58,680 nucleotides of DNA. Origin: a virus. Lineage: Duplodnaviria; Caudoviricetes. The position numbers and the translations under genes were made by a program. How positions within the stretch are numbered: the first letter of the stretch is position 1; the number at the start of each line of letters is the position of its first letter. Below the pieces are notes generated by a model that ran no database searches, was not told the origin of the DNA, and saw only the letters and a list, made by a program, of their open reading frames with translations. The stretch spans positions 1 to 58,680 of IMG/VR virus record IMGVR_UViG_3300034683_000215. One strand, written 5' to 3'. This document shows positions 16,801-44,975 of the stretch, piece after piece.

Positions 16801-17238
16801 GGCGAATCGTTATCCGTAAAGTTAGATAAGGAAGCCAGGACGAAGTGGGACCAGCCGAGCGGCGACTTAACTACCGATGCATGGAGTGCTGCCCAGCGAA
16901 TGACAGAACAATACATAAAAGCAGAGGGTTTGGAAAATGTTTACAAATTCTTTAACTTACCTGTTATAAAAGATAATATCGTTATAGTCGATGAGTTTAT
17001 CAACGAGATTATGAAAGATAAGACGTTAAGCGTAAAAGAGAGGGAGCAAGCATTTGAGTTGATTAAGGTTGAGGCAGATAGGTTGGAATACGCATTTAAT
17101 AAATTTGAAAACGGCGAAAACGTCGGCTATGTTGTTTCCCCAGAGCTAATGAACCACAAAATAATGAAAAAGATTTTAAAGATGAAAGAAAAGATTTTGA
17201 AAAACTATGGAAAAATGACAATCCTTTTCGGCGAATAA
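10852..17238 (+). CDS. Large internal virion (ejection) protein
   Basis: 2128 aa with a Gly/Ala membrane-like region and coiled coils. No RNAP DxDGD motif seen. Confidence 0.65.
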   Translation: MNEELYKLWQTLKENYSDIPEYDVFAEKFLSDETIARQLHKNMMQDFSDVPEDFNTFYSTFKKKSQSEEVLSQPSQEPATKQETGSPNIAIPIKAYSEQTLDERKKINEYNSLLAEISAMGANMEQAEKFKESGLSFLELPEEGEALARTEFSQKYLRAKTLWNEFKESGIVDGEMRYIENDPAREMSGAKQAIVHTSNAVKDALEGSVIGKIAKFLGGAGTDYTREEFSFAPDFAEQVEKEKEQIEEFEQRDVDYKKIHFGKLEQYATLAGSFLVDTPLFIALGGSTGALTSRATGAYVNTVARSLMKTGIAPEMAQAIAVNSLKNTVKGLAVKGAETAVQSGAVLGTYNAINTSLEQIQDAEKFSDISATEILNSFGHGAILGAGVGLVSPLWAKAADMATLGLENQILRKAVKAGVSTAEFGSEATIFAGLSAAMDENQTFGTDAIVENGLMLLALKGASLPTKLLGKAKKVQAKEMKFTEHELNLLGVKDKTQIKKLSQDELVNLAANENIPLVTKYKLMTEISGIIPIGTLKADEVVTEGNIVKLYREYNGKKELVSESKFDDIAAAKDYALKEKQAIIDRQYKTATDKFTVEQLAEYEKKLSSVEDADAMMDAVDTPVELRNAKQKKLANRWYNLVDEVTNKFEKIEKKEAKISPKEAEISTQKTPPIETINEGEIVQKTGEKQPKTEIKGEKKDAKAIRSDEGQILQGEPQKGNEQEGSLRQGAGEGGENLQQSAQKKTLAQEVGTLDEVITLDVPNKRQVIEEFIKEKRGELKNLDDKLIPVFLREVNRATERTAGRVVESLKKALGNSQYAQRIMAASEVSKSLENNIKGLDTKALKKIKVVGRVTRDGKQVISKVNGIKVTELPDNIIDDYIEVANRLNKKVVKPEDVKAANEFLENYSTAIKERKLIEDAPEYKVEELPAVMQERVREIDELLKRGEVEDVKAADAKLRTVERYLRRYKKDGIIDTELNYINDIEGKVQVQMEEVMQRLSSLKIEAKDAVIKANKEILSEIKISEENAVSNGDYLEAQRIKQTVEEIKNIPTALYRLRDSEIADLKEYLDYYNETGVMPVGAYQLNARLRTISRYGKVAENVVRTVEEQIRSNPELSKKLDKSVTELKKLLATNPHSAIGHLLKFKEFIGETVNNPFYNYIQNPGRAAIKEYRTMLEKFMNPIYEAAKTRNWVQKNIYDTGGYDRKMSSVVGILMPQVRMYNFLQKLENRIVGVDGKYMVVDPFGNPYKEGGIEKRFATKNEALEYAKKIPIDKLADGRPFDLFDVLNYELKDGKKVESTKRRAAVITNNSQRNKADLKLFDEAYKELVKRNGGKDLSNIKTDEDALRLLKPEEQKLYKTIRENLTLTGDMNETIAGREGQVLAKENYYYPMLSRSLRMGDANPESLLVTTMESGNLNVTNHIKPKTISLNYIDFDAVRTIERYNRDVLQSYYVLPVAREQLGALKMIRREVENKAIYDAIEKDIRDGYKMEFTSKGIFGQAGFALGSKYVDMSRWFRGVVQAARNYTLAKGERIILDTTANILKAGRLYTGDMSKWDVFFNKYYQGSAAPSSEGDVGFGRHAVEYSGFQRKAKLQKITDEYVAVGDTLPGRRIWVDKFKEAFKKLYKKDFDVEKFTSSKEYRLEVMSNPNWEQAIGIADSNYEQVMVPSTKYSNIKELSYFLFSLRSNTRAFQYNASMASYAMNESAQAAALFQNTDGNVNAAARRLFRYLISNMTFNALTQLGINTTQYLGGVIADDERAKYDALMRMKSLTDPEQVLANGAVSMVNLTIGKYANVGRLASGAIFTGISSALKSGMNKAEKYKYENIEKNLITNLGINRVLSTDFDPTKTYTSWKDVTTIFGGWYGKGVLDYGEDLVKFPEQVYNYVENKTSEDELLNEPFSFAQMTNGLSAWLAGIIPGMPNVKYATRAITSNYIGAVPDKYIRDVASFKTFTLTALDANEVFQEKYKQVKEYGKKRGEGESLSVKLDKEARTKWDQPSGDLTTDAWSAAQRMTEQYIKAEGLENVYKFFNLPVIKDNIVIVDEFINEIMKDKTLSVKEREQAFELIKVEADRLEYAFNKFENGENVGYVVSPELMNHKIMKKILKMKEKILKNYGKMTILFGE
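12953..13105 (+). CDS. Overprinted small basic protein (50 aa)
   Basis: MPKQYEAMRDKFYKENLKKGMSKKEAYDKAQEKAAKIYNSRHKRKLSRKK* in the +1 frame of the large gene, preceded by AAAGGAGAG. Confidence 0.6.
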   Translation: MPKQYEAMRDKFYKENLKKGMSKKEAYDKAQEKAAKIYNSRHKRKLSRKK

Positions 17239-17266
17239 AGGGGCTACTAGAAAGCCCCTTTTTTTT
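17239..17266 (+). terminator. Rho-independent terminator ending the structural operon
   Basis: AGGGGCT-ACTAGAA-AGCCCCT followed by a T-run. Confidence 0.85.
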
Positions 17267-17276
17267 ATTAAAACTA

Positions 17277-17345
17277 TTAGCTAAAAAATTTGCATTTCTC
17301 AAAAAAAGTTCGTATCTTTGTAGTGTCGTAATAATTGTTTTAGCG
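17277..17345 (+). promoter_or_regulatory. Promoter block A, heading cassette array 1
   Basis: TTTG (17289) and TATCTTTG (17313) with 20 bp spacing; inverted copy at 35570-35639. Confidence 0.85.
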
Positions 17346-17350
17346 GTCGA

Positions 17351-17693
17351 GTGTATGGCAAGTGCCTACACAGAACGTAAATAATAAACGCAGTTTAACA
17401 TGAAAGATAATATGAGTGATAATTTTGATATAAACGTAAAAATGCCAGTTTGGAAGAGCATAAAATTGCGTTTATTTAGTGTTGGCAACCAAAGGGAACT
17501 GTTATTAGATTTTCTTTATTGGAGAGAAAAAGAAATACACCCAGCAGACGCTAACAAAATAATAAATAACTATTTAGAGCAGAAAAAATCTAATAATAGT
17601 TGCTAACTTAAATAATAACACTAAAGATTGAAATTATGACAAAAGAAAACAAAAAAGACGAACGGGCATTTGCTATACACGGTGTTATGCCCC
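17351..17693. repeat. attC-like site interrupted by a nested cassette
   Basis: Arms GTGTATGGCAAGTGCC (17351) and GGCATTTGCTATACAC (17665), then GGT-GTTATGC. Confidence 0.7.
17400..17606 (+). CDS. Cassette hypothetical protein (nested cassette)
   Basis: Reads through the arm and GTT (LRLFSVGNQRELL); its stop TAA lies in GCTAAC. Confidence 0.65.
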   Translation: MKDNMSDNFDINVKMPVWKSIKLRLFSVGNQRELLLDFLYWREKEIHPADANKIINNYLEQKKSNNSC

Positions 17694-18040
17694 GTTATTT
17701 TTATCCAAATGGTGATGAGGTAAAAGAAAATGATATTGTGTTTTACTCCGAGAGCAAAAGCGCAGGTGATGACTTCCATTATGCAGACAGTATAAACCTA
17801 ATAGTAAAGCGAGGTAATGAATTAAAAGCAAAAGCTTTTGTGATTACGATGGATAACGCACAAACATTCCAAGATTATGAAGAACCTGAACACAATATGG
17901 TTTCTTTGGAATACGGACAGAATATGTTCAACAAAAATGGTGTGCTACCTGACTTTGAGAAAATAGGTGAATATCCAAAAGATAAAGAAATGTTGACTGC
18001 AAAATATGCCCAAGACCATTTTTGTTTTAATGGGGCATAA
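17636..18040 (+). CDS. Cassette hypothetical protein
   Basis: Starts in the attC-like loop (AFAIHGVMPR spans the arm); stop in GCATAAC. Confidence 0.75.
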   Translation: MTKENKKDERAFAIHGVMPRYFYPNGDEVKENDIVFYSESKSAGDDFHYADSINLIVKRGNELKAKAFVITMDNAQTFQDYEEPEHNMVSLEYGQNMFNKNGVLPDFEKIGEYPKDKEMLTAKYAQDHFCFNGA

Positions 18041-18096
18041 CGGTAAATATAAGAAGCGTGGAGCGTAGCGGAATGATTTTTATATATTGTTAGCTG
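18032..18096. repeat. Short attC-like site
   Basis: GCATAAC...ATATAAGAAGCGT-loop-ATGATTTTTATAT...GTTAGCT. Confidence 0.65.
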
Positions 18097-18133
18097 GCGA
18101 AGCGTACTGTTTAAAAATTTAAAACGAAATATT

Positions 18134-18352
18134 ATGTTGAAAAACTATTTACAAGATTTAGAAGAAATGAGCGAGCGTAATGCAGAATTTAGCGAGTATT
18201 ACCATATGTTATTAAATGGCATTGATGATCTTGAAGGCAATGACAAACCACTATTTGTTTATAGCCTGATGAACGCCATTAGAGATATTGGCTATGAGAA
18301 CGGAAAGCGAGCGGCAAACGAAGCAATGAAGAAATTTTTAAATTGCAGCTAA
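18134..18352 (+). CDS. Cassette hypothetical protein
   Basis: 72 aa; stop in CAGCTAAC. Confidence 0.7.
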   Translation: MLKNYLQDLEEMSERNAEFSEYYHMLLNGIDDLEGNDKPLFVYSLMNAIRDIGYENGKRAANEAMKKFLNCS

Positions 18353-18613
18353 CGGACAGGTATATGAGCCGTGCGGATTAACCTACTAACAATTGAACGA
18401 GGTACACAGTAATAATTTTAAAATATTTTTAGGGATGGAAAAAATAAAAGTAAAAATACCAGAAAAATGTAAAGATTGTGTTTACGTGAATAAAAAAGGA
18501 AATTGTTGGGCTTTGAAAGATAAATGCAACCCAAACAGTATGAATTGTGATTATAGGAAAGATGAAGAGGCGAGCTACAAACGCAAGCATGGCTTATATA
18601 CCATGTTGTAGCA
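18346..18613. repeat. attC-like site with a gene in its loop
   Basis: Arms GGTATATGAGCCGTGC (18359) and GCATGGCTTATATACC (18587). Confidence 0.75.
18435..18611 (+). CDS. Small Cys-rich protein encoded within an attC-like loop
   Basis: MEKIKVKIPEKCKDC...C...C...C; ATG 18435 is in frame with the ORF-track call. Confidence 0.55.
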   Translation: MEKIKVKIPEKCKDCVYVNKKGNCWALKDKCNPNSMNCDYRKDEEASYKRKHGLYTML

Positions 18614-18624
18614 TTGTTTTAATG

Positions 18625-18903
18625 TGCTACAACGTAAAAGTGTATGGTGTCGGTTGCACTTCAAAAACCTACTGACCTACGAACGAGTGATAAACCTCCA
18701 CGTTTACGAGCGTGGCAAAACTTAAATAAAATGAGAAGACATACACAAACGATTGAAGAATGTGAACACTGTGGAAAAGTATTTGAAGCAGGAGAAGATT
18801 ACTGGAAAGATGCACATAATAAATGCTACTGTGTTGATAATGCGTGTGGGTGGGAAGATGACGATACGAGTGACAGCAACTGCACTATACACGGTGTTAG
18901 CAA
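18625..18903. repeat. attC-like site with an extrahelical base
   Basis: GTGTATGGTG(T)CGGTTGC (18640) and GCAACTGCACTATACAC (18876). Confidence 0.75.
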
Positions 18904-18997
18904 TCCGTTAAGTTGCGATGGTTGCAAATACAACGGTACGACTAATGACGACCTTTGCGTAACTTGCGGAGATACATATAAAAACAAAGCAACTTAA
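18731..18997 (+). CDS. Cys-rich (zinc-finger-like) cassette protein
   Basis: CEHC...CYC, then SNCTIHGVSN, then CDGC...CVTC; likely start at 18731. Confidence 0.6.
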   Translation: MRRHTQTIEECEHCGKVFEAGEDYWKDAHNKCYCVDNACGWEDDDTSDSNCTIHGVSNPLSCDGCKYNGTTNDDLCVTCGDTYKNKAT

Positions 18998-19000
18998 TTG

Positions 19001-19104
19001 TTGGTAACGTTTTGCGTATATACGAGGTACGCCAAACGATAAATTTAAAATTATAAACAAATGCTTGTAGGCGTATCTTGTATATACGCTGTTAGCACCA
19101 ATAC
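19001..19104. repeat. attC-like site
   Basis: GCGTATATACGAGGTACGCC (19014) and GGCGTATCTTGTATATACGC (19070), flanked by TAAC and GTTAGC. Confidence 0.8.
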
Positions 19105-19112
19105 GGATTATT

Positions 19113-19355
19113 ATGGAAGATTTTAGATTTACAACAATAGAACCGCTTTTAACAAATGCAGACGCAATGGATTGGTTTTTAAATGAACATTTTTATGAAG
19201 TGTTTGATGAAGATGCAATTTTTCTGAATTACAATGATGGTTATGCAGAAGTGATTGATGGTAAAGGACAAAAATGGGGATTACACGCAAGTGGTGATGG
19301 TGATTTTGTTAGTCACAGAATTAGATTTGAAGCACTAACGAAGTATTGGTGCTAA
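19113..19355 (+). CDS. Cassette hypothetical acidic protein
   Basis: 80 aa; ends in GTATTGGTGCTAA. Confidence 0.7.
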   Translation: MEDFRFTTIEPLLTNADAMDWFLNEHFYEVFDEDAIFLNYNDGYAEVIDGKGQKWGLHASGDGDFVSHRIRFEALTKYWC

Positions 19356-19374
19356 AGAAAAAATAAATATAAAA

Positions 19375-19725
19375 ATGAGTTTAACTGTACGATTAATAGA
19401 AAATAATAAATGCCTCTTTGAGGCAAATATTACACATAATTTAATCCCCATGGCTAAAAAAGTAGGTGTTTACGAAGCATGTTGGCGACCCTACAAAATA
19501 TACGATATAGAAGATGATTTAGAAGATTCGGTTGAAGTAAAAGCCAGAGATATTATATATTTTCTGGTAAGAGGTGTGGTAAAATTAAAGCGTTCTCCCG
19601 AAACTTTCAGAAAATACGATTCCCCTAATGGCTGGGGAACATATGATAATTTTCTACCCTGGTTGGAAAGTTATCTAGCTGCTTGTGAAAAACACCCTAA
19701 TGCAATAATCAAAGTTTATAGATAA
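19375..19725 (+). CDS. Phage hypothetical protein
   Basis: ANITHNL...YDSPNGWGTY motifs; coupled to the next gene. Confidence 0.7.
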   Translation: MSLTVRLIENNKCLFEANITHNLIPMAKKVGVYEACWRPYKIYDIEDDLEDSVEVKARDIIYFLVRGVVKLKRSPETFRKYDSPNGWGTYDNFLPWLESYLAACEKHPNAIIKVYR

Positions 19726-20609
19726 TGGATATAAAAAAAACAAGAAAAGGTAACCTAGGGTCCAGCGACGCCAAGATGGTTGCCAAAATAGCAAAACTTG
19801 GAAAAATTTCTAAATCTGATAAATTTAGAATAGCAGAAGTATTGGGCTTGTACGAAACGCCAAATGTTTATACATCTGCTATGAGGGAGGGACACGAGGT
19901 TGAGGAGTTGTTTTATCAGGCCATCTTGCAAAATTTTAGCGGGGCCAAAAGCAATCCTATTTTTGTCAGCGTAATAAAGCCAAAGCATTTCAATATAATC
20001 AACCACATAGATGTAGAAGTTGAGAAAGAAGATAAGGTGCTTTGGTTTGAGCATAAGGCTACAAAGCACCAATCAATTGATGAGGTAGAAGAGGAATATA
20101 AGTGGCAGCTCCAATGGCATATGATGCTCTTGAAAGAACGTGCTTGTGAGAAAGGCTACTCATTAAAATTAGCATGGTTTAACACCACGACGAAAGAGTT
20201 TTCTTATAAGGAAATTCAAGAAGTCCCCGAAATGATAGAGCATCTTAAGAAGGGGATTGAAATAATCGACCAAGCGTGCGAAAAATTTGAATGGGAAAAG
20301 CCTGAGGAATTACCAGTTGAATATTTGGCAGCCCCTGTGCAGAAAAAGGTGGAAGAGGTAGCGTCAGCGTTGAGGGAGATAGATAATCTCAACAAAAAAG
20401 TAGAAGAATTCAAGAAAAAATTATTAGATATTATGTTGTCTAATAATATAAAATCAATCAAAAATGATTATATCTCGATAACACTAGTTCCAGAGAGCGA
20501 AACGGTTACATTTGACGCTAAAAAATTCAAAGCCGAGAATAAAGAATTATCGGAGAAATACAGCAAGGTAGTAAAGAAAAAACCATACATCATGATCAAA
20601 ACGAAATGA
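19725..20609 (+). CDS. YqaJ / lambda-exonuclease-like recombination nuclease
   Basis: LGSSD, AMREGHEVE, HID...FEHK and YKWQLQW motifs; adjacent to recT. Confidence 0.8.
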   Translation: MDIKKTRKGNLGSSDAKMVAKIAKLGKISKSDKFRIAEVLGLYETPNVYTSAMREGHEVEELFYQAILQNFSGAKSNPIFVSVIKPKHFNIINHIDVEVEKEDKVLWFEHKATKHQSIDEVEEEYKWQLQWHMMLLKERACEKGYSLKLAWFNTTTKEFSYKEIQEVPEMIEHLKKGIEIIDQACEKFEWEKPEELPVEYLAAPVQKKVEEVASALREIDNLNKKVEEFKKKLLDIMLSNNIKSIKNDYISITLVPESETVTFDAKKFKAENKELSEKYSKVVKKKPYIMIKTK

Positions 20610-30423: not shown

Positions 30424-30557
30424 TGTGGCTAACAATGTGTATAATTAATTGGGGTTGTAGTGCAGTTTTCAGCGTCCAACCTCGCCCCAGCGTTCGTGTA
30501 TTTTGATTGGTTCGTGCCACGTAATCCCCAACTAATCATACACGTAACGTTAGCAAT
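30424..30557. repeat. attC-like site
   Basis: GTGTATAATTAATTGGGG (30437) and CCCCAACTAATCATACAC (30526). Confidence 0.8.
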
Positions 30558-30852
30558 CAGTGTCTTGCTCACAATTTTTATAAGCTGGATTACATTCTTC
30601 ACATTTATACTCCCATTTAGCATACTGCCACTTACAATTTCCGCAATCCACCACCGCTTCGCTATTGCTAACATGCTGTATATTGCAGTTGCTATCCGTG
30701 TCGGAAGTCAACCCGGCCCACAATTCTAACATACGAACATCATATTTTAGTCGTTCAACTTCATCTCTGTTTCCAGAAGCCCTGTTTTCCATCAGCGTAA
30801 CTGTATCACGTAAATCTTTTATTACATTAATAATACTTCTCATATCTGCCAT
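30550..30852 (-). CDS. Cassette protein: coiled coil, arm-encoded linker, Cys-rich tail
   Basis: DSNCNIQHVSNS spans the arm; CGNC...CEEC tail. Confidence 0.65.
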   Translation of the reverse strand: MADMRSIINVIKDLRDTVTLMENRASGNRDEVERLKYDVRMLELWAGLTSDTDSNCNIQHVSNSEAVVDCGNCKWQYAKWEYKCEECNPAYKNCEQDTDC

Positions 30853-30940
30853 CGCACGTCTAATTTTTAAAGTTTATACTGTTATTTAAATTTGTGCTGT
30901 TTCTGTCGGCAACCGACAACATACAGCTACGACGTAGTTG
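30664..30940. repeat. attC-like site with a gene start in its loop
   Basis: GCTGTATATTGCAGTTGC (30675) and GCAACCGACAACATACAGC (30909). Confidence 0.75.
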
Positions 30941-30943
30941 TAA

Positions 30944-31207
30944 TTAAAAACTTTTCAGCATATTTTCAGCATCATCTCTGGTATTCCAACTAACTTCGCC
31001 ATTATCAAACTCTTCCACTAACTTAGAAAGAAAAGTTTTTAAATGTTCGCTTCGCCAACTAACAGCAGGTATATTCAAATTTTTTACTTGCTGTTGTGCA
31101 AAATAATCAGCTAACTCTTTATACTGAGATTGCTTTAATTTTATTCTTGTTATTGACATTTCGCCAAACTCAAAAATATGGTTTTCCCCTTCTTTGTAAT
31201 GTTTCAT
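30944..31207 (-). CDS. Cassette hypothetical protein
   Basis: KNLNIPAVSWRSE spans arm and core. Confidence 0.65.
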   Translation of the reverse strand: MKHYKEGENHIFEFGEMSITRIKLKQSQYKELADYFAQQQVKNLNIPAVSWRSEHLKTFLSKLVEEFDNGEVSWNTRDDAENMLKSF

Positions 31208-31264
31208 ATCGTTTGTGTTTTAAATTCGTAAAAAATCAAAATATACCTGCGCTACGTTGGGGGC
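31056..31264. repeat. attC-like site with a gene start in its loop
   Basis: GCAGGTATATT (31065) and AATATACCTGC (31240), then GTTGGGGGC. Confidence 0.7.
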
Positions 31265-35569: not shown

Positions 35570-35639
35570 CGCTAAAACAATTATTACGACACTACAAAGA
35601 TACGAACTTTTTTTGAGAAATGCAAATTTTTTTAGCTAA
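35570..35639 (-). promoter_or_regulatory. Promoter block B (inverted copy of block A)
   Basis: The reverse complement matches 17277-17345 except for one extra A. Confidence 0.85.
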
Positions 35640-35643
35640 AAAT

Positions 35644-36072
35644 TTATATTCCAGTAGATCCAAAGCCTCCTCTGGAATCATTATTCAAGTTATCAACCAT
35701 TTCAAACTTAACATTCGGCTGATTTTTGATAATTCTGAATTGCAAGATGCGCTCGTATTTTTTTATGAATGTTTCCCCTGTTAAACAAAAAAGGTATCCA
35801 CCCCAAATATCATCATCGCCGCGGTAGGAGTTATCAATTATCCCTATTGAGTTGGCAAGAATCAACCCGTGCCTCTTGAACAAGCTGCTTCGGGGAGCGA
35901 TTATGGCTTCGTACCCAGCTGGCAGTTCCATTGAAACACCTAAAGATATTTGTAAAATGTCTCCCTGTCTGATATGCCAACCATCACCTGTGAACCTGTC
36001 TGGTAGGTTAACAATATCCACCAAGTATAAATCAACCCAATCGCCGTTATCTAGTTTAACTAGTCTCGGCAT
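35644..36072 (-). CDS. dut: dUTPase
   Basis: PRSS, GIIDNSYRG, ERILQ and RGGFGSTG motifs. Confidence 0.93.
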   Translation of the reverse strand: MPRLVKLDNGDWVDLYLVDIVNLPDRFTGDGWHIRQGDILQISLGVSMELPAGYEAIIAPRSSLFKRHGLILANSIGIIDNSYRGDDDIWGGYLFCLTGETFIKKYERILQFRIIKNQPNVKFEMVDNLNNDSRGGFGSTGI

Positions 36073-43791: not shown

Positions 43792-43868
43792 AGATTTTAT
43801 TTTTTTTAAAATAACATTGCAAAGATACGAATAATTTTTAACAATTCCAAATTTTTTAACAGAAAAGA

Positions 43869-44282: not shown

Positions 44283-44544
44283 AATTAATTTTTTTTGTTA
44301 TCGGCAAAAATAGCATTTTAAATTTTAACGGCACAAATGTACGAAAAAATTTTGAGAAATCCAATTTTTTTTAAGCAAAAAAATACCATGCCTCTAATTT
44401 TGCATTTTAAGGTATCAAATTTCAACGTTCTTCGTTCGGGAGTACAAATATACCACTTAGGGGTAGAACGCTTAAATATGAGCCTAAAAATGCCCTTAAA
44501 TGGCTTTCTATTAATCGAGATTAAATCGAGTTGAGTTATGATTA

Positions 44545-44975
44545 ACTTTTTTGGGGGGGGACTATAGGGGGGGGTATAGTAAGTAATATTAGTTATTCTA
44601 TATCGATTCTTATAGTATATCTAGTATGTATTAAACATCTTTTAGCATTCCTTACATTCTGTTAGTTTACTTATATTGGTTTATCTATAATACTATTCTT
44701 TTAGTAAGTAATAATGGTTATAAATATAGTTTAAGCCGCTTGTGTTATTTAGTATATTATAGTAAATACTATTGGTTATACTAAGTAATAGTGGTTTATC
44801 TATATACTAACATATATGTTTTATACATAAACATTCTTTGTATATATTATATATAAGCATTGTTCTATATTATATATTATATATTATATATATATATTAT
44901 ATATTATTATATATAGTATATTATATATAAGTAAGTAAAGTAATTAGTATATAAGGGGGGTATGGGGGGGAAATT
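44545..44975. other. AT-rich non-coding region, candidate replication origin
   Basis: TATATTA tandem repeats and very high AT content, bounded by G-runs (GGGGGGGGACTATAGGGGGGG and AAGGGGGTATGGGGGG). Confidence 0.5.

Follow-up and report, generated by a model that had tools for sequence, protein, structure and literature searches.

The window analysed here, an IMG/VR virus record, is 58,680 nt long and bounded by direct terminal repeats. It is a complete phage contig, and its gene content points to a phage of Bacteroidota. The genes include those for RecT (by Pfam match), NinG, a Prim-Pol, a DnaN-like clamp, a C5 methylase, an amidase and a protein with a BACON domain, together with a RecE-like exonuclease (19725-20609; PHROG match), and the closest RecT relatives among cultured phages have Bacteroidota as hosts. 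No site-specific recombinase domain is present in the 69 window ORFs scanned, six-frame searches of the window with PF00589 and PF01797 gave zero matches, and PF00589 is also absent from three related phage records. A blastn search (in the 'distant' setting) of positions 16900-18400 against the phage collection returned no match. The region of interest begins behind a gene for a 2128-aa protein, which is followed in order by a terminator hairpin (17234-17264), a promoter-like module (17271-17345, + strand) and small genes on the + strand. The module contains the motif TTTG..TAtcTTTG at approximately 17289-17322, which we take to fit the Bacteroidetes-type promoter consensus, and a 96% identical copy lies at 35570-35645 on the - strand.

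Between the promoter-like module and the end of the second small gene, ORF134 (17636-18040), there are two hairpin sites, one inside the other, all elements being on the + strand. Arm 1 of the outer site, which belongs to the ORF134 cassette, is at 17351-17367 and forms 17 bp, G.T wobbles included, with arm 2 at 17664-17680, the latter falling within codons 10-15 of ORF134; covarying arms are in the same place in homologues. The body of the ORF134 cassette extends from GTTATGCCCC to GGGGCATAAC (17684-18041), with complementary ends and the stop codon TAA in the AAC box. The 5′ box of the outer site is AGC rather than AAC, and it is here that the promoter module abuts. Within the outer loop is a target AAC (17374-17376), which constitutes the left junction and is followed by a 231-nt cassette (17377-17607) composed of a spacer GTAAAT, an arm, a loop, a second arm, TAGT, GTTGGCAAC, a body and GTTGCTAAC. 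The inner arms (17383-17396 and 17463-17476) are 14 nt long and form 13 Watson-Crick pairs and one G.T, the single mismatch being a G in arm 1 against a T in arm 2. The cassette encodes ORF68 (17400-17606), whose start codon is in the inner loop and whose stop codon TAA is inside GCTAAC. The 5′ end of the body is the GTT box GTTGGCAAC (R′-like, 17481-17489), at which GTT is invariant in the family model described below, and the 3′ end is the AAC box GTTGCTAAC (R″-like, 17599-17607), which constitutes the right junction; between them, an inverted repeat (17500-17517 and 17581-17598) flanks the conserved coding part. What remains of the outer loop (17608-17663) consists of a leader beginning with TTAAAT and the ORF134 start codon at 17636. 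The whole unit is flanked by a direct repeat of 14 nt with one mismatch, such that 10 of the 11 bases past AAC are alike at the left and right junctions.

The initial annotation had described a complete unit between the outer arms, and each element of it (the AAC, the arms, the boxes, GTAAAT and TTAAAT) is where it was placed. It had also proposed that removal of 17377-17607 would leave a short loop typical of such sites, and this holds well: the outer arms now enclose approximately 296 nt, and without the insert the loop is 65-67 nt, compared with 68-74 nt at the equivalent sites of homologues. Folding with RNA parameters gives the outer helix of 17 pairs in both the real and the in silico emptied sequence; with DNA parameters it formed in neither (z -1.2 for the emptied sequence). 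Complementary cassette ends are present elsewhere too (17684/18028 in the window, and in loci L010, L018 and L019), and there is a perfect 13-nt pair between 19092-19104 and 19343-19355. A reading of the ORF68 unit as two tandem empty sites was dropped because the conserved coding body starts at the GTT box, and it is further weakened by the complementary ends of other cassettes.

Homologues of ORF68 were found as 15 other proteins with 58-99% identity, and they are known only as proteins; neither single-protein nor alignment queries gave a relative among viral contigs. The part that is conserved begins at V(S/G)N, which corresponds to the GTT(A/G)GCAAC box, and the N-terminus differs in two homologues (P0013 and P0014). 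The conservation from the GTT box and the differing N-termini together indicate that the cassette body extends from GTT box to AAC box, and that the site contributes the start codon from its loop.

The genome contigs collection contains no relative of ORF134, and homologues are encoded in nine viral and twelve metagenomic loci. The initial annotation would have been contradicted had the homologues of the outer site always contained the inner segment, but all ten distinct lineages with readable upstream sequence (L005, L006, L008, L009, L010, L011, L014, L017, L018 and L019) have the same covarying helix without an insert. In these sites a helix of 16-20 bp begins a few bases past the ..TAAC of the preceding gene and stops 1-4 bases ahead of GTTATGCC, with a loop of 68-74 nt comprising an AT-rich leader, the ATG and the first codons. 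From one lineage to another the arm sequences are almost wholly different, with complementarity kept. There are two loci that show no such arrangement. One is L015, which has no arm 1 in the 76 nt upstream at which the sequence is cut, and the other is L016 (a metagenome contig, approximately 476-832), where a homologue with 76% identity has no hairpin site; the L016 gene has a GGAGG-type ribosome-binding site. The ORF134 gene also occurs, then, in phages or hosts that are not part of the cassette system.

Comparison of close relatives places breakpoints at the AAC just 5′ of arm 1 (L007 versus L008, and L011 versus L013), and the letters shared at these breakpoints are AAC plus a few bases. 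Downstream of GGGGCATAAC there is different sequence in every relative. The DNA likeness between the window and L005 starts at 17667 and ends at 18044, and its starting only at 17667 shows that exchange, or fast change, takes place at the arm 2 and GTT side also. In L007, at approximately 2915, comparison with L008 shows a unit that follows GTGTTAGCG rather than ..GCTAAC, with a GTT-type box that abuts the spacer; the promoter junction in the window (TTTTAGCG, then GTCGA) resembles this one.

The filled and empty forms of the outer site were sought in Logan contigs of four sequencing runs (X5-X8), which were compared with 16900-18300. The initial annotation had called for reads spanning an empty site, and an X5 contig (494 nt, depth 10.2), from a study other than the likely source of the window, joins 17373 to 17605, skipping 231 nt with only the three letters AAC in common. 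To the right of the joint it extends for 431 nt with 2 letters differing; the left side is just 30 nt, where the comparison gives the intervening stretch as not known and at most 27 letters could intervene. In run X8, which belongs to a third study, the loop is likewise unfilled in two contigs from a more distant relative: one skips 232 nt with a T between, and the other skips 243 nt with 12 other letters between. Each empty allele is represented by single Logan contigs. Ahead of arm 1 in X8 stands ..GGTAAC GGTTT, which is the customary box plus spacer. X6 and X7 have no joint, X6 spanning 17621-18010 only, and X7 matches 17244-17528 without a difference and so carries the left junction of the filled form.

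These alleles bear directly on where strands were exchanged. In both informative empty alleles AAC is followed by T, the target type, which puts the crossover within AAC and not in the ten similar bases beyond it. That breakpoints are at AAC is consistent across the X5 joint and the two pairs of relatives. The more specific proposal, a crossover at the gene-distal AAC, stands in that the X5 joint shares AAC, although its position is fixed only to within those three bases. Similarly, the secondary AAC proposed as the insertion point is present in the outer loop, but it is part of a recurrent motif, AACTT, which is found in the loops of 27 of 69 phage sites.

Several other X5 observations concern the same region. 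One contig has the left end of an ORF68-type site right behind ..CTGCT, which is an ordinary array position, although the contig is short. Another, near 17374-17490, seems to have the GTTGGCAAC box of the ORF68 site together with its two arms, but with a different loop (joint 17394 to 17465), and it continues differently right after the AAC at 17489; this hints that the AAC inside the GTT box is a second exchange point. An X5 joint from 17703 to 18022, with a 22-nt side, was set aside because the cassette ends are inverted repeats.

The number of sites in the window is well above background. Sites with the arrangement AAC, gap, helix, gap, GTT and a score of at least 13 number nine in the window, against a mean of 0.6 in ten dinucleotide shuffles, and the architecture as a whole exceeds chance. 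Twenty-seven phage sites with loops of 64-76 nt were aligned, with the structure supplied by hand. In the MAFFT alignment 75.3% of cells pair, compared with 59.4% after shuffling (none of 500 shuffles was as high), the covariation score is 0.417 (0.179 shuffled), and 18 of the 19 arm pairs have changes on both sides. RNAalifold predicted no pairs from this alignment, a null result attributable to some rows in which the arms are shifted by one column. A covariance model (R1), derived solely from the 27 phage sites, identifies 69 sites in 170 kb of phage loci, all of them on the gene strand. The R1 alignment of these matches is itself fitted to the model; in it, pairing reaches 90.1% across the arms and covariation is 0.543, compared with 0.156 in shuffles (0 of 500 as high) and at most 0.122 with the 3′ partners slid. 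The AAC/GTT pairs hold in 65 of 65, 65 of 66 and 63 of 66 phage sites, and, counted from the loop, pair seven is G.T in 57 of 64 sites, A-T in 7 and G-C in none. The spacer is unequal, with 5-6 nt on the 5′ side and 1-3 nt on the 3′ side, and no conserved bulged base of the extrahelical kind was seen in the family.

The ORF68 site is a weak match to the model (22.1 bits, E 0.029). Others in the window are stronger, including a wholly intergenic site at 19001-19099 (+ strand; 20-bp arms, 36-nt loop; 40.3 bits, E 3.6e-6) and the best, at 30425-30556 (- strand; 18-bp arms, 71-nt loop), whose score of 91.5 bits is that of a site among the 27 sequences from which the model was built. The family is also carried by the cultured Polaribacter phage P12002L, in which the site finder lists ten sites. 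Rfam 15 gave no match at the gathering score across the whole window, and in 17200-19400 there are chance-level matches only (all with E at least 0.64).

The phage loops fall into classes of approximately 34, 72 and 140 nt. Larger loops were also observed. At 18346-18613 a 16-bp helix (18359-18374 with 18587-18602, two G.T) encloses a 212-nt loop that holds nearly all of a small ORF (18393-18611), and the helix is followed by GTTGTAGC, 13 nt and GCTACAAC, which corresponds to a cassette body just 13 nt long. Further loops, 140, 225 and 227 nt in length, are at 31055-31263 (- strand), near 30688-30939 (- strand) and near 18631-18904, and may represent further genes inside loops.

The same model finds sites in bacterial chromosomes. 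There are 32 R1 matches in a Flaviramulus genome (G001), clustered at contig ends, and one cluster is preceded by a 73-aa remnant, from the C-terminus, of the array-linked tyrosine recombinase described below (contig 9; L059 6536-6757), which heads a cassette array running to the contig end. Two Chryseobacterium genomes and one Cyclobacteriaceae genome gave no R1 match. In genome G357 a 375-aa Xer-like tyrosine recombinase heads the only array of the genome, which contains all seven R1 matches (11 full-length with filters off), on one strand with the ORFs on the other. The best family match of this recombinase is NF040815 (232.6 bits; cut-off 220), and it scores below the cut-off for TIGR02249, the integron-integrase family (221.3 against 265 bits), a cut-off that is passed by none of 401 Flavobacteriaceae genomes. 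Its best solved relative is a XerC-like protein, and its alignment with IntI (2A3V) is broken into two pieces, between which it has 25 residues against the 68 of IntI (179-246).

Full-length homologues of the G357 recombinase (at least 53% identity, E at most 6e-127) are present at 79 places in the 401 genomes, and 20 of these loci were fetched and searched with a site threshold of E at most 0.01. Nineteen have sites, with a total of 100 matches, all downstream of the recombinase and on the opposite strand; the exception is L078, which has a recombinase without a site. The ORFs run with the recombinase in L067, and in the three arrays with ORFs listed the cassette ORFs lie antisense to the modelled site strand. 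Among 91 bacterial sites, 90-91 have the AAC/GTT pairs, arm pairing is 93.8%, and the G.T is present in all 91, with a second G.T in 79. Because the G.T is kept on the antisense strand of these three arrays, the constraint appears to be on a folded DNA strand and not on mRNA. The phage genes are on the folding strand, the opposite of the bacterial arrangement, and phage units are thus not simply borrowed bacterial cassettes. Ten of 92 bacterial sites (loci L067-L086) are 190-209 nt long compared with approximately 135 nt for the others, and form a discrete size class with about 62 extra nt in the loop.

Taken together, the best explanation, to which we assign a probability of roughly 0.7, is that ORF68 is a nested cassette acquired by integron-type site-specific recombination in which a recombinase of the host acted in trans. 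The nesting itself is real, and the sites belong, as attC-like DNA sites, to an integron-like system of non-IntI type; the attC analogy drawn in the initial annotation is strengthened by the occurrence of the same site family in arrays beside a Flavobacteriaceae tyrosine recombinase. That the event was an insertion and not a loss, which enzyme acted and which strand was cleaved are matters that we infer. The small-gene regions of the phage would be built from integron-type cassettes, each unit on the gene strand consisting of a spacer, a covarying hairpin of 14-20 bp with its G.T, a GTT box, a gene and an AAC box, and units would be joined at AAC. This generic build accords with the earlier suggestion that the mobile unit is arm, loop, arm and body carrying a whole gene. 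The 231-nt ORF68 cassette would have entered the hairpin loop of the ORF134 cassette at a secondary AAC, which reads GTT on the opposite strand, and would thereby have split the outer arms by approximately 296 nt. The hairpins are predicted to act as single-stranded-DNA recombination sites of the same family as those in the Flavobacteriaceae arrays behind the Xer-like recombinase, and since the phage has no such enzyme, that of the host would presumably serve in trans.

There are clear parallels with integrons. Like attC, the sites are imperfect palindromes with outer AAC/GTT boxes and variable, covarying inner arms, of which one strand folds, and the cassette boundary is at G|TT, which is AAC on the folding strand, although here at a resolution of three bases. 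IntI cleaves between A and C on the bottom strand. As in integron cassettes, the 5′ GTT box is complementary to the 3′ AAC box of the same cassette, and stop codons are in the AAC box. There are also departures. Classical attC sites have extrahelical bases, which mark the recombined strand and are bound by an extra segment of IntI; the linked bacterial recombinase lacks the IntI stretch 179-246 of 2A3V, and the sites have a G.T wobble 7 bp from the loop where the classical sites have their extrahelical bases. A further difference from integrons is that the phage gene is on the folding strand behind its own site, often with the start codon in the loop.

The proposed insertion resembles the secondary-site events of integrons, in that the target is outside a proper site and reads GTTCT on the other strand, which fits GWT; Loot and co-workers describe integron cassettes inserting at GWT sites outside att sites (bioRxiv 2022.09.11.507474). 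Integrase-less clusters of attC sites (CALINs) in virulent phages, P12002L included, are described by Qi et al. 2023 (PMC9892861), who report two predicted attC sites in P12002L and recombination of one P12002L site with attI1 by IntI1 in E. coli, with G|TTRRRY junctions. The phage described here is similarly an integrase-less phage with attC-type sites, and P12002L holds the same family. It differs from the CALINs as they are set out in that report (PMC9892861) in that the family fills the small-gene regions (ten sites listed in P12002L), in the link of the sites to a non-IntI recombinase of the host family, and in having a natural filled/empty pair. For Bacteroidetes, the account of IntegronFinder 2.0 names one complete integron, that of Salinibacter ruber. 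Ross et al. describe rAID-1 of Bacteroidales as having a XerD-like recombinase, co-directional genes and integron-like intergenic repeats (bioRxiv 471110). By that description the Flavobacteriaceae loci, with an Xer-like recombinase, then co-directional cassettes and a repeated structured site, are similar, but the phage has no recombinase and its genes are inverted relative to the sites, and the rAID-1 arrays are chromosomal.

A different explanation for the ORF68 indel is homology-assisted shuffling without a site-specific enzyme, in which RecT and the RecE-like exonuclease, or replication slippage, act on short boundary motifs and the hairpins are passengers. The phage does encode both of these proteins and no tyrosine recombinase, the unit is flanked by the 14-nt direct repeat, and the likeness to L005 from 17667 shows breakpoints near arm 2 and the GTT box also. 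A pure site-specific event does not require 10 of 11 bases to be common beyond AAC, and this similarity leaves room for a homology-assisted route. However, the other breakpoints share only AAC and a few bases, and the T that follows AAC in both empty alleles places the crossover within 3-4 bases of the 14-nt repeat. Moreover, in 19 of the 20 bacterial loci the same sites accompany a tyrosine recombinase, and the strong covariation and invariant G.T show that the hairpin itself is under selection. We therefore regard shuffling of this kind as unlikely. Such shuffling is the model put forward for the promoter-stem-loop cassettes of T4-type phages, which are comparable in that small early genes are separated by structured repeats that mark recombination breakpoints. 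The T4-type motifs, however, contain promoters; in the window there is a single promoter module and the sites match a recombinase-linked family.

Alternatively, the helices could be mainly mRNA structures, for control of translation start or for stability or processing of an early polycistronic RNA, with the indel being unrelated. This would account for the G.U pairs being on the sense strand in phages, for the outer helix forming around the nested unit with RNA parameters, and for the position of start codons, as in 13 of 24 listed sites an ORF of at least 60 aa starts at an ATG in arm 1 or the loop and runs through arm 2. However, the wobble is invariant in the bacterial sites, antisense to the cassette genes in the three arrays inspected, the sites with 33-36 nt loops are wholly upstream of the leader, no Rfam family matches, and indels ending at AAC are left unexplained, so that this seems quite improbable as the main role; a secondary RNA role of the hairpins in phages is possible. 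Finally, although the region is rich in repeats of comparable size (9 kb contain 12 direct-repeat families and 14 inverted pairs, such that the short repeats are singly not beyond chance), the nine sites compared with a mean of 0.6 in shuffles, the covariation, the empty allele and the model matches elsewhere make coincidental repeats in AT-rich DNA, with no element present, a negligible prospect.

With nested integron-type insertion as the preferred reading, what is new here is the dense and inverted use of the site system in phages together with a filled/empty polymorphism. Illegitimate or short-homology recombination is the usual explanation for the mosaicism of small accessory genes in phages. 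In the present case gene boundaries are marked by a defined, structure-specific site family in a group of Bacteroidota phages that includes the cultured P12002L, and this family matches the chromosomal cassette arrays of the host family, with a natural filled/empty pair joined at a conserved AAC. It is now testable whether a host gene-capture system shuffles phage genes, and such a system could move cassettes between phage and chromosome; the filled/empty pair is in effect a natural experiment on the cut position of a non-IntI system. A broader proposal, which we make tentatively and with less than even confidence, is that the small-gene regions of lytic phages of Flavobacteriia may be recombinase-less arrays serviced in trans by the Xer-like recombinase of the host. 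The cassettes would be reversed, with the site first, the gene on the folding strand and the start codon in the loop; the hairpin would serve both as a single-stranded-DNA site and as a 5′ structure of the mRNA, and loops would be landing sites such that arrays grow by nesting.

Two minor features elsewhere in the window are of note. Weaker copies of the promoter-like module are present at 43814-43858 and 44333-44371, both on the - strand, and the likeness of the promoter copies stops exactly at the start of the spacer of the next site. Close to where the - and + strand gene blocks diverge there is a region of dense, AT-only palindromic repeats (44840-44935), which could be a replication origin.
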